Source of the DNA: Myxococcales bacterium
GTDB lineage: Bacteria; Myxococcota_A; Polyangia; Fen-1088
DNA length: 64,000 nucleotides
Direction: 5' to 3'
Assembly (NCBI GenBank): GCA_003153015.1
Contig: PMBS01000254.1
Coordinates: 9,568-73,567, forward strand
The notes beneath the pieces are model-generated. The model did no database searches, was not told the DNA's origin, and was given only the letters and a program-made list of their open reading frames with translations. Of this stretch, positions 5,045-61,954 are shown one piece after another (the first letter of the stretch is position 1; each line of letters begins with the position of its first letter). A program made the position numbers and the translations under genes.

Positions 5045-5481
5045 AAAGTCGTCGGCGCCGTCTTGGCAACATTTGCGTGGCGCGCCTGTGACACGGGCTG
5101 GGACTTGATGTCGCCTATTGGAACACGGCGCAGCGCGATGCGTCTAATTCAATGTGCCGGTTGTGCAAGAGTTTTCCATCACGTCACCTGTTCGTTTCCG
5201 GAGCTCGCCAAACTCTGCCCCATGAGATCGGAACGCCGTTTGGCCGCCAGCCGGGTTGACCGGGCACATGTCCCGACCGGCCCTCCAGCCGTGCGCCGGA
5301 TTCCAGTTGCCCGAGCCGACGACACGCCTGGTGTTTCCGTGCTCAGCAGGACGCTAGCCAGGACAATCATAACACCTTCGCGCCCCAAGATCGCCTCGCG
5401 TCGCACGAGTCTCGGTTGCCTGGCCGAGGACGCGCCTCGCTGCGACTGGACGGCCGCGGCTCGCACAGGAGTTCACCTATC

Positions 5482-6198
5482 ATGACTGAGCAGGTGTGCA
5501 TTGACCGAGAATACCAGGATGACGTTCGGCGCTTGCGTGTACAACTGATCATGATGGGCGGTCGGGTCGAAACCCTCCTCGGCGCCAGCGTAAGGGCACT
5601 CACCGAGCGCGACCCCGAACTGGCCCACCGAAGCGTCGAGTCCGATTGCGCGGTCGAACAACACGAGATCGCGGTCGATTGCCTCTGCCGCAGAATTCTC
5701 GCGCGTCGCCAGCCGTTGGCCTCGGATCTGCGCTTCGTCACGAGTTCGCTCAGACTCGCGACCGATCTTGAGCATATTGCCGATCTGGGCGTCAGCATAG
5801 GACGGTGCGCGCTCGATCTGTGCGCCGAGGCGCCACTCCAACCCGAAGTGGGCCTTCCTCGCATGGCCACCGAGGTCGAGTCTATGTTGCACGAAGCCCT
5901 CGATGCGTTCGTCACGTCCGATGCAAGCAAAGCCGAGAAGGTCATCGCTCGTGACCGGTTAGTTGGCAACCTTTCCGCCCAGATCTTTTGCGAATTGCTT
6001 ACCCACGTAGGCGAGAACACTCAATGCATCACGCGGGTTTTGCGGCTGCAGTCAGCCGTCAAGTACGTTGAGCGCGTCGCAGACCATGTCGCCAACCTAT
6101 GCAAGATCGTCGCATTGATCGTTGGCGGAGAAGGTGCTCGCGACGCCGACAACTCGGGAGATTCTATTCGTGCTGTTCCGAACCACGAAAGAAACTGA
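5482..6198 (+). CDS. phoU: phosphate signalling complex protein PhoU
   Basis: Two PhoU repeats (DxxxDxLEL-type helices: RDPELAHRSVESD; LATDLEHIADLG; VERVADHVANL). Start placed at MTEQ rather than the upstream Met. Confidence 0.85.
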   Translation: MTEQVCIDREYQDDVRRLRVQLIMMGGRVETLLGASVRALTERDPELAHRSVESDCAVEQHEIAVDCLCRRILARRQPLASDLRFVTSSLRLATDLEHIADLGVSIGRCALDLCAEAPLQPEVGLPRMATEVESMLHEALDAFVTSDASKAEKVIARDRLVGNLSAQIFCELLTHVGENTQCITRVLRLQSAVKYVERVADHVANLCKIVALIVGGEGARDADNSGDSIRAVPNHERN

Positions 6199-6214: not shown

Positions 6215-7057
6215 ATGACCCGAACTCCGACGGGCCACGGCGCGCAGCCCACGCGTGCCCCGCAGCCGCTTAGCGCGGAGACGGCGCGCCGGTGCAAGGC
6301 TCGAGTCCTGCTGGTGGAGGACGAGGCGGATCTGGCCACCAGCCTCTCCTACAATCTGGAAGCGGCCGGCTACCAGGTGTCGAGCGCGATGGACGGCACA
6401 GCGGCACTGCGGCTGGCGACTGCCCAACCACCGGACATCGTTCTGCTGGATCTCATGCTGCCCGACATATCGGGACTGGAGGTGTGCCGACGGATTCGCG
6501 CCAGCGGCCAGACGCCTCAGCCGATCGTGATCATGGTTACCGCACGCGGTGAAGAGGTCGACCGCGTGGTGGGATTCGAGGTGGGTGCTGATGACTACTT
6601 GGTCAAGCCGTTCAGCGTACGCGAGTTGCTCCTCCGCATGGAGGCGCGGCAGCGCGCCCAAAGCGTTGCCGACGAGCACGAGCACGTCGGCACAGCCGGA
6701 GCTGCGCCGGGCAAGGCTCGCATCACCATCGGCAACCTCGAGGTTGACTCCGACTCCCACCAGGTCTTCGTCAATGGCAGCGAGGTTCACGTGAGTGCGC
6801 TCGAGATGCGTCTTCTGTTGCACCTTTTGGCAGTGCCAGGGAAAGTCCGCTACCGACGCGAGCTGCTGACCGAGGTGTGGGGCTACCACCCGGAGGTCTC
6901 CAGTCGGACTCTGGACACCCACGTGAAACGACTGCGCCAGAAGCTGGGCGAGGTCGGTGCCTACATCCATACGGTTCGCGGGGTGGGCTATCGCATCGTC
7001 GCACAGTCCGCCACGTCTGAGCCGCGCAAGCGAGATCCGGAAGGCAACAAAGGCTGA
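6215..7057 (+). CDS. OmpR/PhoB-family response regulator (paralog 1)
   Basis: Receiver domain (VLLVEDE, DIVLLDLMLPD, VKPF) plus winged-helix domain (LTEVWGYHPEVSSRTLDTHVKRLRQKLG, GVGYRI); start uncertain (Met at 6122 or 6215). Confidence 0.8.
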   Translation: MTRTPTGHGAQPTRAPQPLSAETARRCKARVLLVEDEADLATSLSYNLEAAGYQVSSAMDGTAALRLATAQPPDIVLLDLMLPDISGLEVCRRIRASGQTPQPIVIMVTARGEEVDRVVGFEVGADDYLVKPFSVRELLLRMEARQRAQSVADEHEHVGTAGAAPGKARITIGNLEVDSDSHQVFVNGSEVHVSALEMRLLLHLLAVPGKVRYRRELLTEVWGYHPEVSSRTLDTHVKRLRQKLGEVGAYIHTVRGVGYRIVAQSATSEPRKRDPEGNKG

Positions 7058-8787
7058 CAAAGATCGCGGCCAGTCGGGGCGATGGCATCGCGGGACAGGC
7101 CCAGCAGCGAAGCCAACGTGCGGGTGAAGGCATCGAAGCGTAGCGGTTCCGTGACCAACGTGCCTGCGGGCACACGGCCCGGCGCCCGCAGGTAGAGCGG
7201 CACGCTGCGGTCGAAGCGGCGGGGCGAACCGTGGTTGGTGCCCAGACCCGGATCGAGCTCGGCATCGAAGAAATCGTCCTGGTCCAGCTCGACGAAAAGG
7301 TCTGCGGCTACCTCGACCGGAAGCGACCGGCACAAGAGAGCGTCTGCGCGATCCGGGGAACAGGTGCGGGCGACCTGACGCACGTCCAGCACGGTGCGCA
7401 CGCGGAAGGACTGGCGCAAAGCCTTCTGGGCCACGCGGACGAGCCGCGCCTGATCTGCCGGCGCGACGGACGGCTTGGTCAGGTAGACAAAGGGGCCAGC
7501 CACGCCAGCAACCCAAGGTCCGGGACCGCCAAATTCGCGGGTCAAGGCACTGTCCAGAACCTCGCGCACGGTGTGTCCGGCTGCTGTGGAGCCGGCCTTG
7601 GCAGCTCCGCGCAGACGTCGAGTGGGGGCACAGGGTCGTTGCCAGGGGTCTGGGCTGGCGCACCAGGAGCGCTCGGCCGGCGCCAATTCAGGCAATGGGT
7701 TGATGCCGTGATCGCCGGTAAGGATGACGGCATAGGCGGTCGCGCCCACGGTCGCGTCGAGGAACGAGAAGAACCGCGCCAAGGCCTGGTCGAGCCGCAG
7801 CAGCTCGTCCCATGCCTCCCAAGACTGTGGCCCAAAGAGATGCCCGATGTAGTCGTTGGCGGAGAGCGACAGCGCAAGGAAGATAGGCTTGGAGGAATTC
7901 GCCGGATCGTTTACCGCCGCCTCCGCTAGCCCGAGTACGAGGTCGTCACCGAAGGGCGTGGAGCGCAGGGCCTCCGCCGATGAAACCGCGTGAGGGAAGT
8001 GATTCCCGAGAATGTGCGTCGATTCGCCCGGGTGAGCATCATTCGGGTAGGCATGTCGTGCGACCCACGCGCGCTCCTCCCCTTCCAGGGTCCAGGGTTT
8101 TTGCAGCAGTTTGGCCAAAGCCCCGCCGCCTCCGGCGTTTGCCGCCCATTCCGGCAGTTGCCCGTCCCCGGCAAACGGATTTGAACTGACCATGCGGGCC
8201 GACTTGGTGTCGAGCCACAGCACGAGGTCGGGATTGCGGCCGCCGCCAAACAACGCGCCACGATCTTTGAGAGAGAAACTGAATATGCGTCCCTTCGGAT
8301 GCGCTGCGCGCCACAGGTCAGCAACTGTGGCCACGTCCGAACGGAGGACTATGAGTGAGCTGCCCTCACCCTGCACAGACGTGCTGTCGGCAGCAACCAG
8401 GCGCGTGGCGCGATCACGAAGAATCGACACCTTGTCGACGTCACCCGGCCGGAGAATCTCGTTCGAGTAGATTCCGGTCTCGCGCGGCACACGCCCGGTG
8501 TACAGCGCCGCATGCCCGGGCGCGGTCTCGGTGACCGCATGCTGGAACTCCATTTCGCGCCCATAGAGTCCCTCGCGGCTCAGGCGGGTAAAGCCGCCGT
8601 TCGCAGGCAACTCTTGCGCCCGCTCTGCCATCACCCACGCCGCCAGTTGATCCACCACGATCGCCACCACCACGCGATAGCCTGTCCCGCCTGCCGGGCC
8701 AGTGGAAACCAGCTCACGTGTGGCATGGCACGTGGACAGGGCCGGCAGGGCGAGCGTGAGCGCGAGAAACCCAGATCTACTCATTGC
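6988..8787 (-). CDS. alkaline phosphatase / phosphodiesterase-family metalloenzyme (secreted)
   Basis: Signal peptide MSRSGFLALTLALPALS and alkaline-phosphatase-superfamily core (ILTGDHG, LSLSANDYIGH). Its 3' end overlaps the convergent response regulator by ~70 nt. Confidence 0.7.
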   Translation of the reverse strand, partial: AMSRSGFLALTLALPALSTCHATRELVSTGPAGGTGYRVVVAIVVDQLAAWVMAERAQELPANGGFTRLSREGLYGREMEFQHAVTETAPGHAALYTGRVPRETGIYSNEILRPGDVDKVSILRDRATRLVAADSTSVQGEGSSLIVLRSDVATVADLWRAAHPKGRIFSFSLKDRGALFGGGRNPDLVLWLDTKSARMVSSNPFAGDGQLPEWAANAGGGGALAKLLQKPWTLEGEERAWVARHAYPNDAHPGESTHILGNHFPHAVSSAEALRSTPFGDDLVLGLAEAAVNDPANSSKPIFLALSLSANDYIGHLFGPQSWEAWDELLRLDQALARFFSFLDATVGATAYAVILTGDHGINPLPELAPAERSWCASPDPWQRPCAPTRRLRGAAKAGSTAAGHTVREVLDSALTREFGGPGPWVAGVAGPFVYLTKPSVAPADQARLVRVAQKALRQSFRVRTVLDVRQVARTCSPDRADALLCRSLPVEVAADLFVELDQDDFFDAELDPGLGTNHGSPRRFDRSVPLYLRAPGRVPAGTLVTEPLRFDAFTRTLASLLGLSRDAIAPTGRDLCQPLLPSGSRLRGSDVADCATMR

Positions 8788-9287
8788 GTGCGACCGGAGG
8801 GAGCGCCTGGCGAACTCCCGGGGCAATCCATTGAAACGGCTCGACTTGAGTTGTCCTGGACAAGCTCGCTGCCAGCGCGACGAAATGCCCATGCCGGCGG
8901 CGGTCTCCCATCAGCGGCGAAAGGAACGAAGCCACAGCGGCCAAGCAACAAGAAAAAGCGCGTCCCAATCCCAGGCACACGGCATGCGTTTGCCTCGAAA
9001 TCGCTGTGGAAGCTGCCACAGATCACGAAGTCAAAACCTGGCAAGCGAGGTGACGCGTGATCCGCCACCATGCTCCACGCGGCGGATGGCTCATCAAGCG
9101 CGATCACTCGGAACCCTCTGGCGCGAAGCACTCGGCTCATCCAGCGTCGGGACTCTGCGTCCTGCAGTGCGACCAAGATCCGGGAAGACGGCTGGACACT
9201 GACCGGTTGGCCACCGTTGTCGTTGAATGCGCGGGTATTGAAATCTCTGCATGCGATGGAAGTGGGTGTGAGAGTCGAGGTCGCCAT
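8781..9287 (-). CDS. possible degenerate receiver-domain protein upstream of the phosphatase
   Basis: Frame continues upstream of the phosphatase start with a 4-7 nt overlap. Translation has a CheY-like pattern (ILVALQDAES...GFRVIAL...FDFVICG) but the acidic pocket is degenerate; only the C-terminal ~168 aa from an internal ATG is reported. Confidence 0.3.
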   Translation of the reverse strand: MATSTLTPTSIACRDFNTRAFNDNGGQPVSVQPSSRILVALQDAESRRWMSRVLRARGFRVIALDEPSAAWSMVADHASPRLPGFDFVICGSFHSDFEANACRVPGIGTRFFLLLGRCGFVPFAADGRPPPAWAFRRAGSELVQDNSSRAVSMDCPGSSPGAPSGRTQ

Positions 9288-9552
9288 GGGTCTGGTCCTT
9301 TCGCTTGACCAAGTATTGGCCAACTCCCCAGTCACGCTCGTGGCACCTCGGTGACAAGTCGGAAGAGAAACCGGGTTGGCGTCCTCCACCTTGCTCTGGT
9401 GGCGAGGGCGAAAGCGTCCGAACCGGGTCTCGCAAATGTCGCGCAACGGTAACGCTGTGTTCACGGAGACCCCGCTATGTTGGGTTTGGGTTCCACAGCT
9501 ACTACCCAACCTGCGAACCACAGTCAACCGAACCCGTGATTTGGAGGAGGAA

Positions 9553-9849
9553 ATGAACGACCCAAATGCAAATTCGCACGAAAAGCCGAGCAATTGCGTC
9601 CCTGGCGAGCGGGAAAGAAGGAACGTGCCGGCCGTCATTCCGAACAAGAATCCATGGGACGACAACGAACCCACTTGGCCGGGGACGGAGTACGACGACG
9701 ATGAGGCCGTGGCCGACGGGATGTGCGACGACGACAATGACCCGCCTTGGCCGTGGATGTCTGCGCTTCTCGCCTCTCCGCAACCGTCGCTGTGGGACGA
9801 AGCCATCGCCAGGATCCTCGCCTCCAAGTCCCGCAGCGACTCGGTCTAA
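9553..9849 (+). CDS. small acidic Trp/Asp-rich hypothetical protein
   Basis: ATG preceded by a perfect GGAGGAGG Shine-Dalgarno; 98 aa; local GC lower than surroundings; no family recognised. Confidence 0.45.
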   Translation: MNDPNANSHEKPSNCVPGERERRNVPAVIPNKNPWDDNEPTWPGTEYDDDEAVADGMCDDDNDPPWPWMSALLASPQPSLWDEAIARILASKSRSDSV

Positions 9850-9952: not shown

Positions 9953-10070
9953 ATCAAAAGTGGGCCACCCAGGTCCAGGAGATTGCGACGAACCCAGGCG
10001 GCCCACAAATCCGACACGCGGGATAGCCTCCCGCGTGTAACGCCTCCGTCACGGATCGGACAACTATTGG

Positions 10071-10137: not shown

Positions 10138-12375
10138 CTATGACAGCAACGTGGGCTTGCCGAGCAGAGCGGGCAGCGCGCCAGTCGCTGCGGTCTTCGC
10201 CGGGCTTTCGCGCCCCGCCGCCACATATTCGTCCGTGCCCTCCCTCTGAGCCGGCGGCGTTGCCTCGGATTGCCTCGCCAGTTCAATGAAGCGATGCTGG
10301 CTGCGCCGCAATGGATCGCCATTCCCAGTGCGTAGACGTGTATAGGTCCCGTCGGGCAGCAACATGCGCGTCTTCACGTTGTCCTCCAGGCTGATGGTCA
10401 AGATTTCGTCGATCAAGCGGTCGCGGAGCGATTCGTCGTCGACCGGAAACATGACCTCAACACGACGAATGAAGTTGCGCGGCATCCAGTCGGCCGACGA
10501 CAGGTACACCTCACGCCGGCCGCCGGCGTGAAAGTGGAAGATGCGGGCGTGCTCGAGAAAGCGGTCGACCACGCTCAGCACGCGGATGTTCTCGCTCATG
10601 CCTGGAATTCCGGGCCGCAGGCAACAGATCCCGCGCACCAGCAGGTCGATCGACACCCCGTTCTGCGATGCCCGATACAGGGCGCGGATGACGTCCGGGT
10701 CGACCAGTGCATTCATCTTGGCCACGATGCGGCCTGAATGACCGTACATCCGCTCGCGCTCGATGAGTTCGACAATGCGCTCGGCAAGGCCCAGCGGTGC
10801 CACGGTAAAACGCTTCCACGAGGGCGGAGCGGAATATCCAGTCAGCAAATTGAACATGGCCCCGGTGTCGTCGGCAAAAGCCTCGCGCGCAGTGAAAAGC
10901 GAAATGTCCCCGTAGGTGCGAGCGGTAAGCGAATTGTAGTTCCCCGTCGAAAGATGCACGTAGCGACGGATGGCATCCCCCTCGCGGCGCACAACTAACG
11001 ATGCTTTGCAGTGGGTCTTCAGTCCCACCACCCCGTACACCACGTGCACACCCGCCTCTTCCAGCACGCGTGCCCAGGTGATGTTCCGTCTCTCGTCGAA
11101 GCGCGCCCGCAGCTCGATCATGGCGGTAACCTGCTTGCCATTCTCTGCGGCCCGGGTCAGCGCGGTGACGATAGGCGAATCGGCGCTGGTCCGGTACAAG
11201 GTCTGCTTGATGGCAAGAACGTCGGGGTCGTTGGCCGCCGCGGACACGAAATCCACCACGTGATCGAACGATTCGTACGGGAGGTGCAAGAGCACATCGT
11301 GCTCGGAAATGACCCGAAACATGTCCGCGTCGAGAAAGGCCGCGACTGGCTGAGGAGAAAACGCCTCGTCCCTGAAATCCCGCAACTCGTCGCGCGTGGC
11401 CAGCGGAGCCAGATCGGCCAGGTGGAGCGGTCCCTCCGCGGGGTAGACGTCATCCGGCTGCAAGTGCAGTGCCTTGCGCAGAAAGCTCTCTACCTCCGAC
11501 GGCGTGTCATGTGCGAGTTCCAGGCGCACTGCCTGGTTACGCTCGCGGCGACGCAGCTCACGCTGGATGGTCTTCAGCAGATCGTCCGCCTCGTCTTCAT
11601 CCACCGACAGGTCGAAATCGCGTGTCACGCGGAAGCAATGGCAGCCCATCACGCGAAAGCCGGGAAACAGCTCGCCCACGTGCATGGCAATCACGTCCTC
11701 GAGCAGGACGAAGGCGGCCCGATGGGGCGAGGACGGCGGGATCTCCACCAGGCGTTTCAGCACCGCCGGCACTTGCACAACCGCGAAAATGCGCGAGCGG
11801 CGAGCCACGCGCTGGCTCTCCTTGCGCAGGACAATGGCCAGGTTGAGGCTGCGGTTGCGCAGCACCGGAAAGGGGTGGCCCTGGTCCACCGCGAGCGGCG
11901 TCAGCACCGGCCACACGTTACGGCTGAAGTGCGCGTTCAGGAACCCCTTCTGCTCGGGGTTGAGTTGGTCAGGCGCCAGGATGGCCAGGCCCGCTTTGGC
12001 GGTCAGTTGGGGCGCGACAAAGTCGCGGAAGTTGCGGTACAGGGCCGCCACCATGTCGTGAGTGCGCGAGGAGATCGCCGCGAGCTGCTCTCCAGGCAAC
12101 ATCCCGTCTGCACCACTGTCGGCCACACCGCCGGCCAGCAACTGCTTGAGCCCGGCGACCCGCACCATGAAGAACTCGTCCAGGTTGGACGCCACGATGC
12201 CCTGGAACTTGCAACGTTCGGCCAGCGGCACATTCGGGTCACACGCCTCTTCCAATACGCGTCCGTTGAACTCCAACCAGGACAGTTCGCGATTGATGAA
12301 GTGGTGCGGGCACACATCGCTCCCTGCGCTGCCGAGCGCGTGGTCAGTCGAAGCAGAATGGCGCTTGGAAGACAA
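10138..12375 (-). CDS. ppk1: polyphosphate kinase 1
   Basis: 745 aa with PPK N-terminal (FINRELSWLEFNGRVLEEA), PLD-like C1/C2 domains (HxK motifs, VYLSSADWMPRN). Confidence 0.9.
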   Translation of the reverse strand: MSSKRHSASTDHALGSAGSDVCPHHFINRELSWLEFNGRVLEEACDPNVPLAERCKFQGIVASNLDEFFMVRVAGLKQLLAGGVADSGADGMLPGEQLAAISSRTHDMVAALYRNFRDFVAPQLTAKAGLAILAPDQLNPEQKGFLNAHFSRNVWPVLTPLAVDQGHPFPVLRNRSLNLAIVLRKESQRVARRSRIFAVVQVPAVLKRLVEIPPSSPHRAAFVLLEDVIAMHVGELFPGFRVMGCHCFRVTRDFDLSVDEDEADDLLKTIQRELRRRERNQAVRLELAHDTPSEVESFLRKALHLQPDDVYPAEGPLHLADLAPLATRDELRDFRDEAFSPQPVAAFLDADMFRVISEHDVLLHLPYESFDHVVDFVSAAANDPDVLAIKQTLYRTSADSPIVTALTRAAENGKQVTAMIELRARFDERRNITWARVLEEAGVHVVYGVVGLKTHCKASLVVRREGDAIRRYVHLSTGNYNSLTARTYGDISLFTAREAFADDTGAMFNLLTGYSAPPSWKRFTVAPLGLAERIVELIERERMYGHSGRIVAKMNALVDPDVIRALYRASQNGVSIDLLVRGICCLRPGIPGMSENIRVLSVVDRFLEHARIFHFHAGGRREVYLSSADWMPRNFIRRVEVMFPVDDESLRDRLIDEILTISLEDNVKTRMLLPDGTYTRLRTGNGDPLRRSQHRFIELARQSEATPPAQREGTDEYVAAGRESPAKTAATGALPALLGKPTLLS

Positions 12376-12408
12376 GGTTTAGGTCTTGCTCCGCGTTGAG
12401 ACCACCTT

Positions 12409-12436
12409 CTGTGACAATTCTGTGAACTCTTGTGAT
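12409..12436. promoter_or_regulatory. candidate Pho-box-like element: three ~11-bp phased direct repeats (CTGTGACaatt CTGTGAActct TGTGAT)
   Basis: Lies 35-60 bp upstream of the ppk1 start on the coding side; its reverse complement contains TTGTCAC/AGTTCAC half-sites resembling the E. coli CTGTCAT Pho box. Confidence 0.45.
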
Positions 12437-14014: not shown

Positions 14015-14043
14015 GAAATTATGACAGGGCAACGTGACAAACC
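14015..14043. promoter_or_regulatory. candidate Pho box (minus-strand reading TTGTTGC-TTGTCAC-CTGTCATaatttc)
   Basis: CTGTCAT is identical to the E. coli half-site; half-sites at 11- and 13-bp spacing. Sits in the divergent region between ppx (minus) and response regulator 2 (plus). Confidence 0.45.
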
Positions 14044-14163
14044 AGCAACAATCGGACGGGCCGGCTCGTCTCCCTTTCCCCATGACCGTCCGCGAGATGG
14101 GAGAAGCACGAAAGTTTCAGCAACTTCACCGTCCCGTAACCTTGGGGCCGTAGCCTGTCGGCA

Positions 14164-14955
14164 ATGGTTGAATCCAGTCGTCGACCCTTGCCCCGCATCC
14201 TGGTCGTCGAGGACGAAGTCGACATCAGCGCCTCGTTGTCGTACAGCCTGAAGGCAATGGGCTATGAAGTGCAGGTCGCGGAACGTGGCGAGGCGGCGCT
14301 GGAGGCGTTGGCCAGCTTTCGTGCCGACTTGGTTCTGCTGGACATCATGCTGCCCGACATATCGGGATTCGATGTCTGCCGCCGCATACGAGCAGCGACT
14401 AGTGGTGTCCAGCCCGTGGTGATCATGCTGACCGCCAAGAGCCAGGAACTGAACCGCGTGGCCGGCTTCGAGGTGGGCGCCGACGATTATGTGACCAAGC
14501 CGTTCAGCATCCGCGAGCTCATGCTGCGCATTGAGGCGCGACTCAAGGCGCGACGGCCAGCGGCTGAGCCGGCCCCGGGATCGAAAGGCGCCAAGAACCC
14601 GGAAGACGAAGCGCGGGTGAAAGTGGGCCCGCTGGAAATCGACCGGGCTGAGCACCGCGTGTTCGTGTCCGGCGAGGAAGTCCGGGTTAGTCCACTGGAG
14701 ATGCGCCTTCTGCTTTTCCTGGTGCGAACCCCGGGCAAGATGCGTACGCGCAAGGAACTGCTGACCGAGGTTTGGGGCTACCATCCGGAGGTATCCAGCC
14801 GCACTCTGGACACGCATGTAAAACGCATCCGTGACAAGTTCGGCGCTTCCGGCGATCTCATTCAGACGGTGCGCGGGGTGGGCTATCGCTTGGCTGTGCA
14901 TGCAGAGCCGGCGGCACAGAAACCAGCAACGGCCACCCCAACGCGCAAAGGCTGA
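14164..14955 (+). CDS. OmpR/PhoB-family response regulator (paralog 2)
   Basis: 263 aa, receiver plus winged helix; highly similar to paralogs 1 and 3 (shared LLDIMLPDISGFDVCRRIRA, VAGFEVGADDYVTKPFS, LLTEVWGYHPEVSSRTLDTHVKRIRDKFG). Confidence 0.85.
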   Translation: MVESSRRPLPRILVVEDEVDISASLSYSLKAMGYEVQVAERGEAALEALASFRADLVLLDIMLPDISGFDVCRRIRAATSGVQPVVIMLTAKSQELNRVAGFEVGADDYVTKPFSIRELMLRIEARLKARRPAAEPAPGSKGAKNPEDEARVKVGPLEIDRAEHRVFVSGEEVRVSPLEMRLLLFLVRTPGKMRTRKELLTEVWGYHPEVSSRTLDTHVKRIRDKFGASGDLIQTVRGVGYRLAVHAEPAAQKPATATPTRKG

Positions 14956-14985
14956 AGAGGCAATGATGTGCGCAGCCGACGCATC

Positions 14986-15774
14986 TCACCTGCGCCGGGC
15001 GACGCTGCCCGGCGGATCGTGGCGACGGACCCGCTGCTGTGGCTTGGCCAGGCGATAGCCTACGCCATGCACTGTCTGGATCATCCACGCCATGGGCCCG
15101 AACTTGTCGCGGATGCGTTTGATATGGGTGTCGAGGGTACGACTGGAAACATCAGGGCGGTAGCCCCAGACCTCAGTCAGCAACTCGCGGCGCGTGTGCA
15201 TCTTGCCCGGCGAACTGGCCATGTATGCCAGCAGGCGCATTTCTTGGGCGCTGAAGCTGATCTCTTCACCCGCAAGAAAAACCCGGTGGCCTGCTTGATC
15301 GATCTCCAATGGTCCCAGGGTCAGGCGCTCGTCAGTCGTATGCTGGCCCCGGAGTTCGCCGACAGCAGCCAGCTCGGCGGTTTGGCGCGCCCGCAGCCGC
15401 ACCTCGATGCGCAACATCAGCTCGCGCAGGCTGAACGGCTTGGTCACAAAGTCGTCCGCTCCAACCTCGAAACCTGCTACCCGGTCACTTTCTCCGGTCT
15501 TGGCGGTCAGAATGACCACGGCTGGTTGCCGGGCCACCGCGCTGGCACGGATTCGACGACAAACCTCGAAGCCGGAGCAATCGGGCAGGCTGATGTCCAG
15601 CAAGACCAGGTCAGGGCACAAATCGGGAAACGCACGCATGGCCTCTTCACCAGTGCCGACGACCTGCACCTTGTAACCCGCAGCCTCGAGAATGTACGAC
15701 AGCGAACCGCTCAGATTAGGCTCGTCTTGCACGACGAGAATGCGCACGGGCGCCTGGGATGAGATCCCGAGCAT
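14986..15774 (-). CDS. OmpR/PhoB-family response regulator (paralog 3)
   Basis: Convergent with paralog 2; same domain architecture; start placed at MLGISSQ (internal Met). Confidence 0.8.
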   Translation of the reverse strand: MLGISSQAPVRILVVQDEPNLSGSLSYILEAAGYKVQVVGTGEEAMRAFPDLCPDLVLLDISLPDCSGFEVCRRIRASAVARQPAVVILTAKTGESDRVAGFEVGADDFVTKPFSLRELMLRIEVRLRARQTAELAAVGELRGQHTTDERLTLGPLEIDQAGHRVFLAGEEISFSAQEMRLLAYMASSPGKMHTRRELLTEVWGYRPDVSSRTLDTHIKRIRDKFGPMAWMIQTVHGVGYRLAKPQQRVRRHDPPGSVARRR

Positions 15775-15901
15775 GCGGCGACCATATTCGGGGTACCATG
15801 GAGATCGTGTTACAGCACTGCAACGTGATTGTGAATGCAATGTGGAGCCCATGGGCGTCATCGAGCGAATGCGTACCGCGCCATAGGAATGCGACGCGCG
15901 A

Positions 15902-16849
15902 CTACTGCGTCACCTTGATCTTGTATTGCTTGAAAGTCGTGCCACCGCGTGAATCGCGCAGCACGAGCCACAGGTAGACCGGCATTGCCGTATCCGGGGC
16001 CTTCCAGGTATTGCTGGTCGAGATTGCGACTTCGGTGCCTGCCACACCCGTGCGGTCGTGTTCAAACGACCCGGACGTGGCAAACCAGGACATGTACAAA
16101 CTCTCGGTTTGATCCACCAGCGCGTCGCCGCTCGGGTTGAGGACCGGGAACGTCTCGGCCGAGCTCGCCGTGAACCTTGCCTCGAAGACGACCGATTCGC
16201 CCGGCGACACGATCTGGGTGTCGAAATCGAGGTTCAGCCGGGAACCGTCGGCCCTGACAACATCGGTGGAGGCGATGCCGGGATCGTTGTTCGGTTGGTA
16301 CCGCGTGTTGTATTCGTCGACAATAGTCGTTGGAGCATTGGCCAGATTGCAGGCAATTCGCTCAAAGGCAAATCCGGTCAGGCTGCCGGTCGCTAGATCA
16401 GGGAATTTCACCCGAACCGGCAAGTAGTAGCCGCCGGTGCTATCCGGATCGCGCGGTCTGATCGCCGGCTGTCCCGCCGAAGGCGGGGGCGCAATGGGGC
16501 CGAACAGGGTGCAGGCGTTGGTGAGGACCGGGGTCTCGAAGGTCTGTCCCGTGGTCGGGCCAGGCGCGGGAGGATTGCAGGCACTGGCCACCGAATTGTT
16601 CTCGGCCGGGGGTTTGGGTGTCTCGCAAACATCCCAGCCTGCGGTGGCGTCGGTCACAGTTCCCGCGGGCGATGCAAGCAAGAAGGAGTACACCACGTCG
16701 GCCCCTGGCTTGGACTCGGGGGGCTCGCCCCTCACCGCGAGAAGAGCGTAGTCGGTGACGAGCGAGGGAGCCTGCCCCACCTCGGGCTTGCACCCGAGCA
16801 CGGTGCTGGCAAGAGCGACCACAAGAAGAGGTTGTTTTGCGTAGGCCAT
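15902..16849 (-). CDS. lipoprotein of unknown function (paralog of 53535..54557)
   Basis: Signal peptide with lipobox (ASTVLGC); start abuts the stop of the upstream TonB-dependent receptor; shared motifs GGYYLPVRV and WYATAGSFEHD with the cassette-B paralog. Confidence 0.7.
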   Translation of the reverse strand: MAYAKQPLLVVALASTVLGCKPEVGQAPSLVTDYALLAVRGEPPESKPGADVVYSFLLASPAGTVTDATAGWDVCETPKPPAENNSVASACNPPAPGPTTGQTFETPVLTNACTLFGPIAPPPSAGQPAIRPRDPDSTGGYYLPVRVKFPDLATGSLTGFAFERIACNLANAPTTIVDEYNTRYQPNNDPGIASTDVVRADGSRLNLDFDTQIVSPGESVVFEARFTASSAETFPVLNPSGDALVDQTESLYMSWFATSGSFEHDRTGVAGTEVAISTSNTWKAPDTAMPVYLWLVLRDSRGGTTFKQYKIKVTQ

Positions 16850-19501
16850 CTAGAACTCCAGGCGTGCACCCGCAACCGCAAGTATCGGCAGTCCGATGAT
16901 GTAGCTTCGCTGCTTGTAGTCCTGACTGTAAATAGTCTCCTCGGGATTCTTGCGATTAGTAACGTTTTGCACGTCGATGAACATGCTCAGCTTCGTCCGC
17001 CGCATGACGAATGCCTTTTCGCCACGGAGATCCAGTTGGTAGAAGGCCGGGATGCGAATGGAGTTGTGCGCTCCGAAGACGGGCTCATAGTAGCCGTTTC
17101 TGCCGAGATAGCTGTCCACCACCGGTGTGCGCGGCATCCCGCTGGAGTAGCGAAAACGTCCACCTACCACGAAGTCCCTGCCCAACTCGTAGCTGGCGAG
17201 GAGAGCCAGCACGTGGGTCTGGTCATAGTCGAACAAGCGAAATGCCTGATCAGGATGATCGCGGCGCTCGCTGCGTGACAGGGTGTAGGTCGCCCAGCCG
17301 AAGAAGCCCTTGAACAGTTCCTGTCGAAGCAGAACTTGGAGTCCAAACACGCGACCGGTTCCATCCTGGGCCAGCGCCTGTCCCACTGGCGGGGATGGAC
17401 TTTCGCTGCGTGAGACGAGGTCGTACAGTTTCTTGTAGAAACCCACGGATTCCAAGGTCAAGGTCGGACGCAGCTTGAACGAGAACCCACCGGTCAGGTG
17501 TACGGCATATGACCCCACAATTGACGGGTTGCCGAATACCGGGGACATGTCCGCGGGATCGGGCGGCTGGCCGTATACTCCCGCGCCGCTGGTGAGGGTG
17601 AGCTTGGGGGTAGGTCGCCACGCGATCTGCAAACGCGGATTGGGAAAGTTGCGCAGCACCGGGACGCTAATCGGATTGGGGGGAGCGTCGAGCCGAGAAT
17701 AGCCGACCGGGGGCGCGATATTGCTGAACGGAAGGCGATGATCCCCTTCGATCCAAGTGGGTTCGAAACGCAAGCCCGGCGTCACGGTCCAGTTGCCGAG
17801 CTTGATGTCCACCGTGGCATAGCTGGCCACGCTGAAGACAGTCACGTTCCAGTTGTCGGATGCGGTCTCGGATGGGGGGCGTTGGCCGAAGACGACGATG
17901 TCTCCTTCCCGGGGCGGCTGGTTCACTGAACCGTTCCGGCTGAGTTGGACTTGCTGTCCCTGTACATCCATGCCGACCAAGAGCACCGCCGTCGGATGAA
18001 TGCGCCGGCGCAGACTTCCGCGCAAAGCGTAGGACAAGGTCTGCGTGTCGAGCTGCGTGCTTTCATCGCCGAAAGTGTCTCGCTCGGCATTGTGGTCGAT
18101 GCCCATCGAGGGAGTCACGCGCACGCTGGAGCCATCGTCGAACAAGCGGCTGTAGCTGACGAAGATGCGGCGAAAAGAGGTGTCATTGTTCTGCGTGCGC
18201 AGATCTGCGGGGTCGCTGGCCGGAATGGTTCGTTGCAGGTGATCGTCCGACGCGAGAAAAGTCGCGGCGATCTCCTCGTCCTTGCGCAGGCTCAGGGAGG
18301 CCCGCGCCTGGTAGTCGTCGTAGCGCGGGATAGGAAATGAGTCGCCGATGTCGGCCGAGGTGACTCCCGATATCACGCGGTCGAGGTAGCTGATACGTCC
18401 AGCCACGGCCAAGCGCAGCCGTGGGGTCACTGCGGCTGACACCTCGGCCGAGGTGTCCATGATGTCGCCGGCAACATAGCCGTGCACGCCGGACGGGGGA
18501 AGCTGGCCGAGTTCGATGCGCACCAGACCGCCCAGCCCGCGTCCGTAGTCGGCGCCGTACGCCCCGGGCGAGAGATCGATGGACTTGACCAGATCGGAGT
18601 TCACCGTCGAGCGTAGACCGCCCATGTGGTACAGGCTGGGAATCTCCACCCCCTCAACCACCACCCTGGTCTCCTTGGGCGAGGAGCCCCAGACCACAAG
18701 CTGGCCTGAACCGAAGCTGGCGCGTCCCACCCCCGGCAGGTTCTGCACAACCTTGAGGGTGTCGCCCTGCGTGCCAGGAACCTTGCGCGCCTCTTCGGTG
18801 CGGATGCGGGTTTCCACCGCCTCCTTCTTGATGCGGGCCGCACGTACGATGACTTCCTCGTCGACGTCTTCCTCCCTCTGTTCGACGTAGTACTTCATGG
18901 TGCGCTTCTGGCTCGGCCGGATGGTTTCGTCGGTCAGCACAGTGACGAGCCGCGGATGTCGGATCTCAACCTTGTGCGCGCCAGGAGGCAGATCAGTGAA
19001 CGAGAAGGCCCCGGCCGCATCGGTCTTGGTGGCCAAGTCCAGGTCCTTGATACGCACGGTCACATCGGCCATGGGCTGCTTTTTGAATCGATCCAGAACC
19101 ACGCCCTCGAAGTTCACCTGTGGTCCGAGTGACACCATCTTGGTCACAATGGTGAAGTCGTAGCGGTAAGTGATCTTGACGGGAATGGCTTGTCCTCCGG
19201 CCTCCGCCGGGGTGAAGAGGAACTGCCGGGCAGCAGCAACCGCGGCGCTGTCGAAATCGGACCCGCCGCTTTCGACAACCTCGACCCCGCCCACCTTGCC
19301 GTCGTCCCCCACCTCGATCGAAAGCAGCACGCGTGCGGTGATGCCGGCGTCGTGCTTGTCCTTGGGGTATTCGGCCGGGACGAAATGAATCAGGCGCGGG
19401 GGCTTGGTGATGGCGACCGTTTCATCGGCACGCGAAGGCCCCGGGCAGACCGGGAACCCGGCGCCCACCAGAGCGGCCACAAAGACAAGGCGGTGGTGCA
19501 A
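16850..19501 (-). CDS. TonB-dependent receptor-like outer-membrane protein with N-terminal TonB-C-like domain and carboxypeptidase-regulatory-like domain
   Basis: 883 aa with signal peptide. The TonB_C signature (AEYPKDK...ARVLLSIEVGDDGKV...SGGSDFDSAAVAAARQFLFTPAE...PVKITYRYDF) is followed by a CarboxypepD_reg-like beta-sandwich, a plug-domain motif (GTQGDTLKVVQNLPGVGR) and a long barrel ending in C-terminal Phe. Confidence 0.8.
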   Translation of the reverse strand: MHHRLVFVAALVGAGFPVCPGPSRADETVAITKPPRLIHFVPAEYPKDKHDAGITARVLLSIEVGDDGKVGGVEVVESGGSDFDSAAVAAARQFLFTPAEAGGQAIPVKITYRYDFTIVTKMVSLGPQVNFEGVVLDRFKKQPMADVTVRIKDLDLATKTDAAGAFSFTDLPPGAHKVEIRHPRLVTVLTDETIRPSQKRTMKYYVEQREEDVDEEVIVRAARIKKEAVETRIRTEEARKVPGTQGDTLKVVQNLPGVGRASFGSGQLVVWGSSPKETRVVVEGVEIPSLYHMGGLRSTVNSDLVKSIDLSPGAYGADYGRGLGGLVRIELGQLPPSGVHGYVAGDIMDTSAEVSAAVTPRLRLAVAGRISYLDRVISGVTSADIGDSFPIPRYDDYQARASLSLRKDEEIAATFLASDDHLQRTIPASDPADLRTQNNDTSFRRIFVSYSRLFDDGSSVRVTPSMGIDHNAERDTFGDESTQLDTQTLSYALRGSLRRRIHPTAVLLVGMDVQGQQVQLSRNGSVNQPPREGDIVVFGQRPPSETASDNWNVTVFSVASYATVDIKLGNWTVTPGLRFEPTWIEGDHRLPFSNIAPPVGYSRLDAPPNPISVPVLRNFPNPRLQIAWRPTPKLTLTSGAGVYGQPPDPADMSPVFGNPSIVGSYAVHLTGGFSFKLRPTLTLESVGFYKKLYDLVSRSESPSPPVGQALAQDGTGRVFGLQVLLRQELFKGFFGWATYTLSRSERRDHPDQAFRLFDYDQTHVLALLASYELGRDFVVGGRFRYSSGMPRTPVVDSYLGRNGYYEPVFGAHNSIRIPAFYQLDLRGEKAFVMRRTKLSMFIDVQNVTNRKNPEETIYSQDYKQRSYIIGLPILAVAGARLEF

Positions 19502-20236
19502 TCAATCCCCCAGCTCAAAACGGCGGGCCAAGACATAGGTCCCTCCCGCGACCGGCTTGCCACAGGCCATGGCTGGCCGGAAGCGCCACTGTTTGACCGC
19601 GGCCACCGCGGCCGCGTCGAGTTCGGGGGAGACGCTGGCCAGCACCTCGACCGCCATCACCGAGCCGTCCGCGCCGACCACGATCTTCAGCTTGAGCTTG
19701 CCTTCGATCCCCTCGGAGCGTGCTGCAGCCGTGTACTCGATCTCGGTCTTGAATACGGGCTCAGGCTTGGAAGGCTCGTCCGTGCAGCGCTCCTCGATGT
19801 TCGGCCCTGCCCCCAGCTCCTGGCGCTGGCGGTGGTGATGCGCCTCGGGTTCGAAGGTGGCCACCTTGGTGGGCGCCACGGCCTGGGGGGCCCGCACGAT
19901 CGGGATTGCCACGGCATCGCCGATATCCTCGTTGCTCATGGCGATCTCGGTCGGCATGACCATGGTAGCCACCTTGGCTGCCGCAACTGGGGCCGCGACC
20001 GGCATGAGCTTGGGCGCGGCCGCGAGTTTCTGCTCCTTCGGCTTCGCATCCACCTTGGCCAGCTTGGGCGGAGCCTTGGGCTTGAGCGGCGCCTCCTTCT
20101 TCTTCTTCTTCTTGGCCTCCTCCTGCAACTGCACAACGTAGGTCTTGCCCGAGGCGCGGTGTTGCGATGCCGTGAGCAGGGCAAACGCAAACCCGGCGTG
20201 AATGACCATCGAAATAGCGACCGTGGACTTCTTCAC
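19502..20236 (-). CDS. tonB: TonB family energy transducer
   Basis: N-terminal TM, Lys/Pro/Ala-rich spacer, C-terminal TonB_C domain. Confidence 0.75.
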   Translation of the reverse strand: MKKSTVAISMVIHAGFAFALLTASQHRASGKTYVVQLQEEAKKKKKKEAPLKPKAPPKLAKVDAKPKEQKLAAAPKLMPVAAPVAAAKVATMVMPTEIAMSNEDIGDAVAIPIVRAPQAVAPTKVATFEPEAHHHRQRQELGAGPNIEERCTDEPSKPEPVFKTEIEYTAAARSEGIEGKLKLKIVVGADGSVMAVEVLASVSPELDAAAVAAVKQWRFRPAMACGKPVAGGTYVLARRFELGD

Positions 20237-20280
20237 GGCAAGACCTCACGACTGGGCAGCAAGTGGCAGAGCAATGTCCG

Positions 20281-21437: not shown

Positions 21438-21453
21438 GGGTCACCTTTCCTTT

Positions 21454-25665: not shown

Positions 25666-25742
25666 GGCAATCCTGCCTCCATTTCAGACCCGGCAAACCC
25701 GGGCCGCGGTGGGACCATAGCGAGATACCCGGCGAGCGACTG

Positions 25743-25781
25743 CGACGGATTTGCGTCGGATTTGTGACGGAAGCGCAACAG
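25743..25781. promoter_or_regulatory. 11-bp phased direct repeats (minus-strand GTCACAAATCC GACGCAAATCC GTCGC)
   Basis: Lies ~80-115 bp upstream of the cassette-A PstS-like gene start, in the divergent region shared with the small MYXO-CTERM ORF. Confidence 0.4.
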
Positions 25782-25928
25782 AAGAGACTACGGAGCTTGG
25801 GACGCAGTGCGAGTGGTCAACCTAGCCGGGAGTGTCGCGCAACGGTCGCGAATGGTTTGCCGAGACTTGGCAACCCTGCACCCAATTGCAGCGCGGGCAA
25901 TCTGCCTCCCGCCATCACGCAGGCTACG

Positions 25929-26872: not shown

Positions 26873-27052
26873 GACAAGCGTGCTTTGGTTATGGGGCGTC
26901 CCACCATTTTGCCAGACCTCCTTGCGACCGGCAAAACACGAAGGCTCGCCTCAATCCCGCGATGGCTGCAGCAGGTCTTGGCCCGGCGTGGCGGGAGCCG
27001 GCGCGGCGAAGCGAACGGCCGCTGAACGCGATGGATTTGCTACGGGGGAGGC

Positions 27053-27080
27053 CGTGACTTGCCTGTCACATAGTTGTAAC
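27053..27080. promoter_or_regulatory. candidate Pho box (cGTGACttgc CTGTCACatag TTGTAACgaat)
   Basis: Half-sites CTGTCAC and TTGTAAC spaced exactly 11 bp, 70-90 bp upstream of the SBBP lipoprotein gene at 27152; closely resembles the element upstream of pstS (61848). Confidence 0.5.
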
Positions 27081-27151
27081 GAATTCTTCTCTATTGCCAT
27101 CGCCAAAGGCGCCTAAAAGAGGCTGCCATTTCCACTGCGTTTCCTGGCCAA

Positions 27152-29170: not shown

Positions 29171-29187
29171 GCGGGACGGCCAGCGAG

Positions 29188-29205
29188 GTGTAACAAATCC
29201 GACAC
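29188..29205. promoter_or_regulatory. imperfect palindrome GTGTAACAAATCCGACAC related to the perfect palindrome at 35782
   Basis: Shares the GTGT....TCCGACAC arms; lies ~80 bp upstream of the SBBP lipoprotein gene at 29284. Confidence 0.35.
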
Positions 29206-29283
29206 GAGAAATTCATAAATACCTCACCCGACACTGCCATGGGCGGGGGTATCTACGCATGACAACTATTCCCGGGCAGGGAC

Positions 29284-31212: not shown

Positions 31213-31298
31213 GGTGAAGCAGGGCGGGGCGCTCGATGGGACCGTAATCCAGCGGCTGTAGGCCATACCCCCCAACCATCTACGAGACGAATACCGCC

Positions 31299-40506: not shown

Positions 40507-40576
40507 GACGGGACACCTCCACAATGCAAGACGCAATATCGAATGGAGGAAGCGCCGGATCAAGCAAGGATCGCGT

Positions 40577-40594
40577 ATGTGACAGGAGTGTCAC
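40577..40594. promoter_or_regulatory. ATGTGACagga GTGTCAC - 11-bp phased half-sites (also an inverted repeat)
   Basis: Lies ~280 bp upstream of the PstS-like gene at 40871. A second element, CGTCAGTTATCCGTTGCG at 40720-40742, resembles (as reverse complement) the element at 46662-46698 upstream of the cassette-B PstS-like gene. Confidence 0.35.
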
Positions 40595-40870
40595 CCTTCC
40601 TTTGCAAAGAGTTAACAAATCGAGGTCATCGACGTCGATGACGCTAGCAACTGAAAGCTGCGACTTCCGTCGGTGCGTTCGCTCTGGGTTGTGCGGGGCA
40701 GCGAGGGATTTCGCAAGAGCGTCAGTTATCCGTTGCGAATGGTTGGCAAAGCCCTCACACACATCCCGCTTGCAAGCTGCTATTCAGTGTGCCGCCGGAA
40801 TAGGGGAAGCGGCCAAGGGGGTGCGCGACCAAGCCGGCGCGGAAAACGAACGATTCAAGGAGGCAGCAAA

Positions 40871-42694: not shown

Positions 42695-42754
42695 CAGTAG
42701 ACGAACACCGCCTGATGTTGGGCACTTTGGAGGCGTGGCGAGTCGGGGTCGGGG

Positions 42755-42783
42755 CCTTGCCTCCCGCACAGCGGGAGGCAAGG
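42755..42783. other. 13-bp perfect-stem hairpin CCTTGCCTCCCGC-aca-GCGGGAGGCAAGG
   Basis: Read directly; no flanking T-tract. Followed by a partial copy of the GGGAACCC REP-like core (gtggggtggggaacccgg). Confidence 0.6.
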
Positions 42784-46540: not shown

Positions 46541-46780
46541 TATATGCGGGCACAAGCGCAAGGACTCGGTGTCCAAAGAGGGGGGCGGCGAAACGCCGGG
46601 GCGCGTGGTCAGCAGGGACAGACCGGGACGACTCCTCGACGGAAAAGCGACTCGACAGGAATTGTCACGCAACGGAATAGTGACGGAAAAGCGACAAGAG
46701 CGCGCACATAACCATTTCTGTTGACCCCACGATTTGCCGATTGCTATAGGCACTCCATCCTCGAACCACGCGGAGGCCCG

Positions 46781-54557: not shown

Positions 54558-54712
54558 GGTCGTCGATCGCCGCGGACGGGATTTGCTAGACCCTGCCAAG
54601 TGAACGAATTGTGACAACTCAGGGCCTGAAGGCGTAACACAAGCGTAACAGACGCGAACCGCTAAACAGGGATTATCCACGCGCGGCACAGGAGAATGCC
54701 GGCCTGAGACTC

Positions 54713-61643: not shown

Positions 61644-61847
61644 GCATCCATGGTCCGCCGGGTCGCCTCCAGATGCAATCCCGAAGGCCGGGAGTCCAGA
61701 TCCGCTCTTGGCGGGCCACCGCGGACGAAGGCGTCGCGGACGCTCATCTGGCCGAGCACAGTCCGCGCATGCGGCGGCACGGGACAGGATCCGTAGCGAG
61801 ATTCAAGTCTTGCGCCAACTCCACGACGCAGGCCGGGATCCTTTGAT

Positions 61848-61865
61848 TTGTAACGTAACTGGCAC
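61848..61865. promoter_or_regulatory. candidate Pho box TTGTAACgtaa CTGGCAC (11-bp phased)
   Basis: Lies 90-107 bp upstream of pstS in an AT-richer stretch; same half-site family as 27063-27080. Confidence 0.5.
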
Positions 61866-61954
61866 ATCCGCTTGAACCTCGAAGACCCAGACTGCTGAGC
61901 GGAAGGTGGGACGTCTCCCGCCTCGTATTTCAAGACGCACGAAAGGGTAGCCGC

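Follow-up and report, generated by a model that had tools for sequence, protein, structure and literature searches.

Gene content of the locus

The 64-kb stretch of DNA analyzed here over its full length (hereafter the window; contig PMBS01000254.1 of a Myxococcales bacterium) belongs to an uncultured member of the Polyangia (Myxococcota) known from metagenomes, as is also reflected in the names that NCBI gives to the relatives of its PstS, and the same locus is present in many JGI and ENA metagenome assemblies. Several of its intergenic spacers carry short direct repeats with an 11-bp period, which lie before ppk1, ppx, pstS and other genes and which are interpreted below as a predicted PHO box, i.e., as operators of PhoB-type response regulators. 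The window has a G+C content of 63% and is densely packed with phosphate genes as detected by Pfam and NCBIfam models, the Pho-type set comprising PhoU, PstS/C, Ppk1, Ppx, a phosphodiesterase and a metallophosphoesterase. The genes to which the repeats are related are the following (PhoU, the phosphodiesterase, Ppk1 and Ppx as assigned by Pfam/NCBIfam; RR1, RR2 and RR3 denote three PhoB-like regulators):

5416-6198: PhoU, directly 5' of RR1
6290..7057, plus strand: RR1, directly after phoU, with the Pfam domains Response_reg and Trans_reg_C and the recognition helix SSRTLDTHVKRLR
6988-8892, minus strand: type I phosphodiesterase
10138-12375, minus strand: Ppk1
12470 to about 13930, minus strand: Ppx
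14164..14955, plus strand: RR2, divergent from ppx; its best solved relatives are RegX3, MtrA and PhoP
14986..15774, minus strand: RR3, at the end of cassette A
15902-25665, minus strand: cassette A
27152-33629 and 40673-46467: paralogous lipoprotein arrays
46721-54557, plus strand: cassette B, paralogous to cassette A
24382-25665 (minus strand) and 46781-48046 (plus strand): first genes of cassettes A and B, with no Pfam/NCBIfam match and a Cys-rich C-terminal tail
55295-58192: metallophosphoesterase
61955 onward: pstS-pstC, with the pstS ATG at 61955

A plus-strand open reading frame (ORF) at 14968-15762, which overlaps the minus-strand RR3, is regarded as spurious.

Direct repeats with an 11-bp period

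The initial annotation of this DNA had proposed recurrent 11-bp phased direct repeats resembling the Pho box, with a half-site of about YTGTMAC. All seven sequences that it listed are present at the positions it gave, and its distances are right, with 72 bp separating 27080 from the lipoprotein start at 27152 and 90 bp separating 61865 from the pstS ATG. It had named equal frequency in coding and intergenic DNA as an outcome that would tell against the motif; instead, counting TGTNAC on either strand gives 30 occurrences in the intergenic 11% of the window versus 31 in coding sequence, a 7.9-fold intergenic enrichment which ranks first among 60 composition-matched permutations (median 1.04, next best 4.2). 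Around the intergenic TGTNAC anchors a second site in the same orientation (at least 4/5 matches) is found 7-8 times at offsets of +/-11 bp and 3 times at +/-22 bp, with 0.41 expected per offset. Likewise, TGTNAC-N5-TGTNAC dimers with at least 9/10 matches at a spacing of 11 number 12 in intergenic and 2 in coding sequence, and each of the other spacings from 6 to 17 yields 0-3 intergenic dimers at the same threshold. With a refined gene map the spacing-11 intergenic dimers number 13, against a mean of 0.22 +/- 0.49 and a maximum of 3 in 1000 dinucleotide-preserving shuffles. Unrelated ppk1 loci of other phyla, 1.3 Mb in total, served as a control, and in these a spacing of 11 is not preferred. 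The 11-nt period expected of a PHO box is hence evident in the offset-11 peak, in the exclusive excess at spacing 11 and in the shuffles, and it is confirmed that the repeats are real and have the geometry of PhoB-type sites, one helical turn apart. A residual explanation by chance, or by the composition of AT-richer intergenic DNA, could appeal to the looseness of the half-site first proposed and to a window of only 64 kb; given the permutations, shuffles, spacing and unrelated-locus controls, together with the conservation and the independent matrix described below, its probability is negligible.

Motif discovery by expectation maximization (EM) from 400 random intergenic 22-mers of the window gave tGTgAC-gaattc-GTcACa as the best motif, i.e., tGTgACgaattcGTcACa, with the general form tGTnAC-N6-GTnACa; an AT-rich second motif near 4724 in the first run was an EM artefact, as the sequence there contains no such thing. 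An independent matrix was obtained by EM with 300 random seeds on the intergenic DNA of related contigs alone (16.3 kb), and this converged on tGTnACanatntGTnACa (tGTnAC-anatn-tGTnACa). When the window was scanned with this relatives-only matrix, all of the top 12 matches (27062, 25761, 40576, 12408, 25750, 14031, 54631, 54597, 10034, 61847, 9435 and 46677) and 20 of the 21 best fell in intergenic DNA. These 12 positions cover six of the seven elements of the initial annotation and the array adjoining the seventh, a half-site at 46662.

Anatomy of the repeat unit

A unit matrix was compiled from 69 units in one-directional spacers, oriented with the gene. Position -1 is T in 27 and C in 23 units, the core reads G-T-(C32/G14/A13/T10)-A-C with the last base being C in 67 of the 69, A follows at position +5 in 35, and position -2 is unconstrained. 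The majority unit in the direction of transcription is thus Y-GTCAC-A, to which the proposed half-site YTGTMAC comes close; the actual unit is looser, being Y-GTNAC-A with a palindromic GTNAC core. In this sense orientation GTCAC is preferred over GTGAC by 2.3:1. As the core is its own reverse complement, direction is given by the flanks only and strand assignments are accordingly soft. The phased direct repeats of the initial annotation are borne out by the excess at spacing 11 and by a T 5' of the core on the same strand in successive units of almost all arrays. The claimed likeness to the E. coli CTGTCAT holds for the shared TGT-A core and does not extend to CTGTCAT as the half-site, the consensus here being a distinct one.

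No structured RNA accounts for the repeats, given that an Rfam search of the whole window returned zero matches. Similarly, the idea that they are the -35-like element of ordinary promoters was rejected, since they repeat at 11 bp and occur only at Pho-type genes, and promoter prediction gave no TTGACA/TATAAT promoter.

Catalogue of boxes in the window

The boxes and associated elements are listed by position:

5066..5093, minus strand: TGTCAC-aggcg-CGCCAC-gcaaa-TGTTGC, three units before a small repeat-containing ORF (4640-5044, minus strand)
5182..5199, plus strand: phoU-RR1 box, CGTCAC-ctgtt-CGTTTC
9337..9358, minus strand: TTGTCAC-CGAG-GTGCCAC, before an operon of a small protein and the type I phosphodiesterase
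9435-9467: second array near the phosphodiesterase operon, three units
12406..12426, minus strand: ppk1 box, plus-strand sequence CTTCTGTGACAATTCTGTGAA, in ppk1 sense TTCAC-AGAAT-TGTCAC-AGAAG, two units 11 bp apart
12430..12436, plus strand: TTGTGAT, the third ppk1 unit of the initial annotation, 10 bp rather than 11 from the second unit
14018..14051, minus strand: ppx promoter, TTGTTGC-TGGT-TTGTCAC, 10 nt, then CATAAT (-10-like, 14018-14023)
14122..14143, plus strand: RR2 box, AACTTCAC-CGTCC-CGTAAC, matrix score 10.2
15806..15835, minus strand: RR3 array, three units, on the plus strand TGTTAC, TGCAAC, TGTGAA
25714-25719: TATGGT, -10-like element of cassette A
25739..25782, minus strand: cassette A array of 4-5 units, in sense CTGTTGC-gctt-CCGTCAC-aaat-CCGACGC-aaat-CCGTCGC
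27051..27083, plus strand: lipoprotein-1 array, CGTGAC-ttgcc-TGTCAC-atagt-TGTAAC, three units
29187..29208, strand unassigned: GGTGTAACAAATCCGACACGAG, between lipoproteins 1 and 2, an 8/10 dimer 95 bp before the lipoprotein-2 start, matrix score 11.9
40576..40597, plus strand: TATGTGAC-AGGAG-TGTCAC, in the divergent spacer between a TPR-RCC1 operon and lipoprotein 4, a 10/10 dimer and the third best matrix match
46657..46698, plus strand: cassette B array, an out-of-phase TTGTCAC, then GCAAC-N6-GTGAC-N6-GCGAC, 11 nt, CATAAC
54597..54652: two dimers, AGTGAAcgaatTGTGAC (plus) and TGTTACgcttgTGTTAC (minus), before a small lipoprotein-like ORF (54713-55075) and the metallophosphoesterase gene
61847..61868, plus strand: pstS box, TTGTAAC-GTAA-CTGGCAC, a 9/10 dimer
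61888-61893: CAGACT, a conserved -10-like element 22 nt 3' of the pstS box

Boxes are thus located where a PHO box would be expected, before pstS, phoU-RR1, ppx, ppk1, the phosphodiesterase operon, the metallophosphoesterase and the regulators RR1-RR3. Sites beyond those of the initial annotation are present at 5066-5093, 5182-5199, 9337-9358, 9435-9467, 10034-10053, 14122-14143, 15806-15835, 29187-29206, 54597-54650 and 55171-55190. No box precedes purE/D/H or Sua5 in the window, nor the housekeeping genes in two related contigs (L089, L090).

Conservation of the boxes in related Polyangia

Related contigs were reached through homologue searches with PstS, Ppk1 and a cassette protein, followed by contig look-ups. 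This yielded L087-L090, with pstS 94-73% identical, L091-L094, with ppk1 90-84% identical, and L095-L097, with the cassette protein 75-59% identical; a Ppk1 scan of a genome collection found only distant relatives (at most 59%), which were unusable for footprinting. Boxes are kept at the orthologous promoters of seven Polyangia contigs (L087 and L091-L094 at 84-94% protein identity, L095-L096 at 68-75%) in the midst of diverged flanking intergenic DNA, the conserved positions lying before pstS, ppx, ppk1, the phosphodiesterase operon, the cassettes, the lipoprotein arrays and the regulator genes. This is the conservation at orthologous promoters to be expected of a PHO box. In seven related loci (L088-L090 excepted), dimers with at least 8/10 matches number 98 in intergenic versus 27 in coding sequence, intergenic DNA making up 8-20% of each locus. 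The distant contigs L088-L090 and L097 retain the boxes only partly, and in a scan of further ppk1 loci from Myxococcota (55-59% identity) the motif was mostly absent.

The ppk1 box, a 9/10 dimer and the fourth best match of the relatives-only matrix, provides a footprint: when the 94-bp spacer between ppx and ppk1 is compared between the window and L091-L094, a single conserved block stands out from diverged sequence, TTCACa(g/c)aa(t/a/c)TGTCACAGAAG, corresponding to 12406-12426. The third unit formerly assigned to this operator (TGTGAT, 12431-12436) is out of register and not conserved, relatives reading GCGAT, GCGGAT or TTGCAAA, so that TTGTGAT at 12430..12436 probably lies outside the ppk1 operator as delimited by the alignment. 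Five genomes, among them L091-L094, retain gATTGTTGCnnGTTTGTCAC-N10-CATAAT at ppx irrespective of the upstream gene, and the box is conserved in L087 too. The CTGTCAT which had been read here as a third half-site lies 13 bp out of phase and is conserved as CTGCCATAAT, with CTGCCAT in relatives; on these grounds it is more likely part of the -10 hexamer (CATAAT), 10 nt after the box.

At pstS, all five genomes compared (the window and L087-L090) have a strong unit, TTGTAAC or TTGTCAC, some 105 bp ahead of the ATG and, 11 bp from it, a second and weaker one; a CAnnnT hexamer lies another 21-22 nt downstream. A sigma-54 promoter at this position (TGGCAC-N5-CTTGA) was considered and rejected, as the -12 GC is missing and GG becomes GA in L087. 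The pstS leader also contains a hairpin at 61905-61922, GGTGGGA-cgtc-TCCCGCC, for which L087 has GGTGGGA-cgtc-TTCCACC, with two pairs altered yet paired (T-G to T-A, G-C to G-T); to judge by these changes it may be a conserved structure of the 5' untranslated region.

The box of the phosphodiesterase operon, TTGTCACCnAGGTGCCAC, precedes the orthologous operon of L087 as well and is likewise present in L094. The neighboring 348-aa ORF at 8781-9827 (minus strand) is over-extended, since the conserved box at 9340-9356 falls inside the spurious extension; relatives call a 166-aa gene. As a counterpart of the phoU-RR1 box, CGTCACCTGTTyGTTAC recurs before regulator genes in L087 (255-272) and L094 (14507-14524), and CAACTTCACCGTyyyGTAAC lies 39-47 bp before RR2 orthologues in L087 and L092. 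The RR3 block TCACAATCACGTTGCAGTGCTGTAACACGA is conserved in L092 (four units) and L095 and is followed by a conserved TATGGT; in the window this hexamer lies at 15781-15786, its end only some 7 nt from the probable RR3 ATG (15774), and RR3 may be made from a leaderless transcript. The array at 5066..5093 is conserved in L087 (128-166) and L092 (14804-14821); the ORF behind it (4640-5044, minus strand) matches no known family and contains a tandem duplication of 84 nt (28 aa). A perfect 12-nt inverted repeat in L087 (7873-7901), TGTTCTCCATTT-GTCAC-AAATGGAGAACA, lies before an EAL-GGDEF gene and scores as a box on both strands; it is hairpin-like and probably a false positive.

Cassettes and lipoproteins

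The cassette A array supplies the second and fifth best matches of the relatives-only matrix, and the distance from its GTCAC to TATGGT is 44 nt in both the window and L094, where the orthologous proteins are 47% identical; in L095-L097 boxes lie 103-115 bp before the cassette A orthologue. At cassette B a box is indeed present, as a three-unit chain at 11 bp (46669-46695, matrix score 12.1) which is the weakest among the sites of the initial annotation; the half-site named there, at 46662, is out of phase with this better array. The top match of the matrix (16.5 bits) is the lipoprotein-1 array, a 10/10 dimer with a third unit, and similar three-unit arrays occur 60-90 bp before the lipoprotein arrays in L095-L097. 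L096 also carries arrays in the equivalent lipoprotein/TPR divergent spacer, and has GGTGAAcagaaTGTGAC 135 bp before its metallophosphoesterase gene. The two dimers at 54597..54652 match at 10/10 and 8/10 (matrix scores 13.4 and 12.3).

Cassettes A and B together encode a 427/441-aa protein without annotation, a porin O/P-like protein, ExbB, ExbD, TonB and a TonB-dependent receptor, with ExbB, ExbD and TonB detected in cassette A only. The family of the first cassette gene has 264 matches, all confined to this Polyangia lineage. A predicted model of the cassette A 427-aa protein (pLDDT 87.7, from a 43-sequence alignment) has as its top PDB matches, roughly the first 45, almost exclusively PstS/DING-type phosphate-binding proteins (lowest E-value 7e-11, highest target TM-score 0.82). 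The label "PstS-like", which the initial annotation had attached to such genes, is therefore borne out at the level of the predicted fold, and this fold strengthens the assignment of the cassettes to the regulon. The modelled PstS-fold protein and the porin O/P-like gene following it suggest a TonB-energised outer-membrane phosphate-capture system. The placement of both the lipoproteins and the cassettes in the predicted Pho regulon is likewise supported by their boxes being among the best matches of the relatives-only matrix and by the recurrence of boxes before orthologous cassettes and lipoprotein arrays in L094-L097.

The cassette receptors (16850-19501, minus strand; 50617-53535, plus strand) carry N-terminal TonB_C and CarboxypepD_reg domains before the Plug and barrel, an unusual fusion that is conserved in relatives. 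The lipoproteins (27152-33629, 42949-46467, 36812-38239 and 54713-55075) are paralogues, all with lipoboxes; a 1172-aa protein shares 63% identity over its C-terminal half with lipoprotein 3, and it is in this 1172-aa protein that SBBP is detected, though weakly.

PhoB-like regulators encoded at the locus

The window encodes three regulators of the OmpR/PhoB family with a PhoB-like recognition helix, lying within 10 kb of each other. The best NCBIfam model for RR1, RR2 and RR3 is TIGR02154 (PhoB), at 216, 213 and 198 bits respectively, and the helix SSRTLDTH(V/I)KR(L/I)R is common to all of them. Alignment with E. coli PhoB, with the reference checked against PDB 1b00/1gxp, shows that they keep R193, T194, D196, H198, R201, R203, T217 and G220 as well as the phospho-acceptor D53, with V197 being T; most of the DNA-contact residues of PhoB are retained. 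In the PhoB-DNA structure of Blanco et al. from 2002, these residues are reported to contact the major groove at TGTCA.

Comparison with known operators

In E. coli the PHO box ends 10 nt before the -10 hexamer, and there is no -35 hexamer. The putative ppx promoter would match this layout, its box ending 10 nt before a candidate -10 hexamer and no TTGACA-type -35 having been found. The boxes share with the E. coli element the tandem 11-bp direct repeats, the T-G-T-x-A core and the location before pst, phoU, ppk/ppx, phosphatase genes and the regulators' own genes, and RR1-RR3 share R193, T194, H198, R201 and R203 with its regulator. The differences are that the Polyangia unit is Y-GTNAC-A, with C rather than T as the last base, a free central base and a palindromic core; that the spacers are not consistently A/T-rich; that arrays reach 4-5 units; and that several promoters have 21-22 nt between their last strong unit and the -10 candidate. 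On the protein side, V197 is T in RR1-RR3, there are three paralogues versus one, and none reaches the equivalog score. The published definition of the E. coli PHO box is a pair of 11-nt direct repeats in which 7 conserved nt are combined with 4 less conserved ones, CTGTCAT being the most conserved motif (PMC4415409). By the structural part of this definition (11-nt direct repeats, 7+4 nt) the Polyangia element is a lineage-specific PHO box, which does not follow the consensus CTGTCAT.

In Streptomyces coelicolor, PhoP binds 11-nt direct repeat units (DRus) with the core GTTCACC (PMC2275107, PMC4415409). The Polyangia boxes resemble these operators in occurring in a high-GC genome, in units of 11 nt variable in number and quality, in simple and complex operators and on either strand, and the ppk1 box contains GTTCAC in sense. 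They differ in core sequence and phylum, and binding has been demonstrated for the Streptomyces units, whereas the Polyangia boxes are predicted from sequence. Within the same phylum, PhoR1-P1, PhoR2-P2, PhoR3-P3 and the orphan PhoP4 take part in the phosphate response of Myxococcus xanthus (cited in PMC4415409); there, too, a single phosphate response involves more than one PhoP/PhoB-like regulator, and not all of them have a kinase next to them. No myxobacterial PHO box came up in a literature search. As to the outer-membrane genes, TonB-dependent receptors and lipoproteins induced by phosphate starvation are described in Caulobacter (PMC2996285), and phosphorus-acquisition loci in Bacteroidetes (PMC8115612). 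These systems and the present one have in common that TonB-dependent transport across the outer membrane and lipoproteins of the cell surface come under phosphate control; the present one differs in that its cassettes start with PstS-fold and porin O/P-like proteins and have a receptor with an N-terminal TonB_C.

Interpretation and alternatives

What the computation shows directly is the motif with its phasing, intergenic location, conservation and gene associations, along with the conserved recognition helix of the regulators. Judged on these results, the repeats are probably operators, i.e., a PHO box, of PhoB-type winged-helix response regulators in this uncultured Polyangia lineage. Promoters carry 2-5 head-to-tail 11-bp units whose core is Y-GTNAC-A and, read along the transcript, usually TGTCAC. 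Upon phosphate limitation a dimer or oligomer of the phosphorylated regulator would occupy the tandem units along one face of the helix. The units would occupy the -35 position, or lie immediately 5' of it, in promoters devoid of a -35 hexamer, with one or two helical turns between the last strong unit and a downstream -10-like hexamer, and the bound regulator would recruit RNA polymerase. Predicted targets comprise pstSCAB, phoU-RR1, ppx, ppk1, the phosphodiesterase operon and the metallophosphoesterase on the one hand, and on the other the two TonB/ExbBD/receptor cassettes starting with a PstS-fold protein and the paralogous lipoprotein arrays; the regulator genes would be among their own targets, amounting to autoregulation. 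In this scheme we infer DNA binding, phosphate dependence, activation rather than repression and the acting paralogue, which could be RR1, RR2 or RR3.

Several observations weigh against this interpretation. The palindromic GTNAC core renders orientation ambiguous, and by the rule of a 5' T the boxes of ppk1, RR3, cassette A and 54634 read antisense, even if all of these can be read in sense too. The distances from box to -10 fall into two classes of 10-11 nt and 21-22 nt (ppx 10 nt, CATAAT; pstS 21-22 nt, CAnnnT; cassette A and RR3 22 nt, TATGGT), the -10 hexamers being only candidates. The ppk1 box lies 35 bp from the start of the longest ORF, without a convincing -10; here repression, or a shorter ppk1 start, may apply, and the box is about 95-110 bp from the start used in shorter relatives (725-728 aa), the distance at other genes being 87-106 bp. 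Additionally, L088-L090 keep just one strong half-site before pstS, RR1-RR3 all score below the 296-bit PhoB equivalog cutoff, and no histidine kinase is found in the 64-kb window.

Some of these points would also fit an OmpR/PhoB-family regulator that does not sense phosphate (e.g., RR2 or RR3 responding to another nutrient or to an envelope signal), with the Pho genes as neighbors or secondary targets. The near-identical recognition helices mean that the motif cannot tell which of the three paralogues acts, none of them passes the equivalog cutoff, the strongest boxes by matrix score precede lipoproteins and cassettes rather than pstS, and other family members such as ArcA also use TGTNA-type direct repeats at 11 bp (PMC4173790). 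However, the boxes before pstS, phoU-RR1, ppx, ppk1, the phosphodiesterase operon and the metallophosphoesterase are conserved in several genomes, the first cassette protein has the fold of a phosphate-binding protein, and no non-phosphate theme is visible among the targets, which makes this alternative unlikely. Far less probable still is that the sites are palindromes of the TGTGA-N6-TCACA type, bound by a dimeric helix-turn-helix regulator, whether CRP/FNR-like or not. CRP has TGTGA as its half-site, the GTNAC core is a palindrome, and EM on both strands gives the symmetric-looking tGTgAC-N6-GTcACa; however, the cores of CRP-like sites would sit 9 bp apart, and there are 3 intergenic dimers at spacing 9 versus 12-13 at 11. 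Arrays of 3-5 units furthermore keep the 11-bp register, with the +/-22 offset also enriched, the flanking T stays on the same side of successive units, and no CRP/FNR-family gene was found among the window ORFs.

Within the preferred interpretation of the repeats as PhoB-type operators, a more elaborate arrangement can be put forward tentatively. The three PhoB paralogues, with near-identical recognition helices, boxes at their own promoters and no kinase nearby, might form a multi-input phosphate circuit converging on one type of operator, whose main output would be a hitherto undescribed TonB-energised outer-membrane phosphate-capture machine in two copies together with the surface lipoprotein arrays. 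The machine would consist of the PstS-fold protein, the porin O/P-like protein, ExbB/ExbD/TonB and the receptor with its N-terminal TonB_C domain.

Biological implications

The regulatory principle is a textbook one, and the value of the finding lies in annotation and in the biology of the cassettes rather than in a new mechanism; the predicted PstS-fold/TonB cassette output and the set of three regulator paralogues are its more unusual aspects. It provides an operator sequence and a predicted phosphate regulon for an uncultured Polyangia lineage common in peat, soil and wood metagenomes. It also gives a phosphate-scarcity context to hitherto unannotated families, namely the PstS-fold cassette gene, the paralogous lipoproteins and several small ORFs, and points to TonB-powered outer-membrane phosphorus acquisition in myxobacteria.

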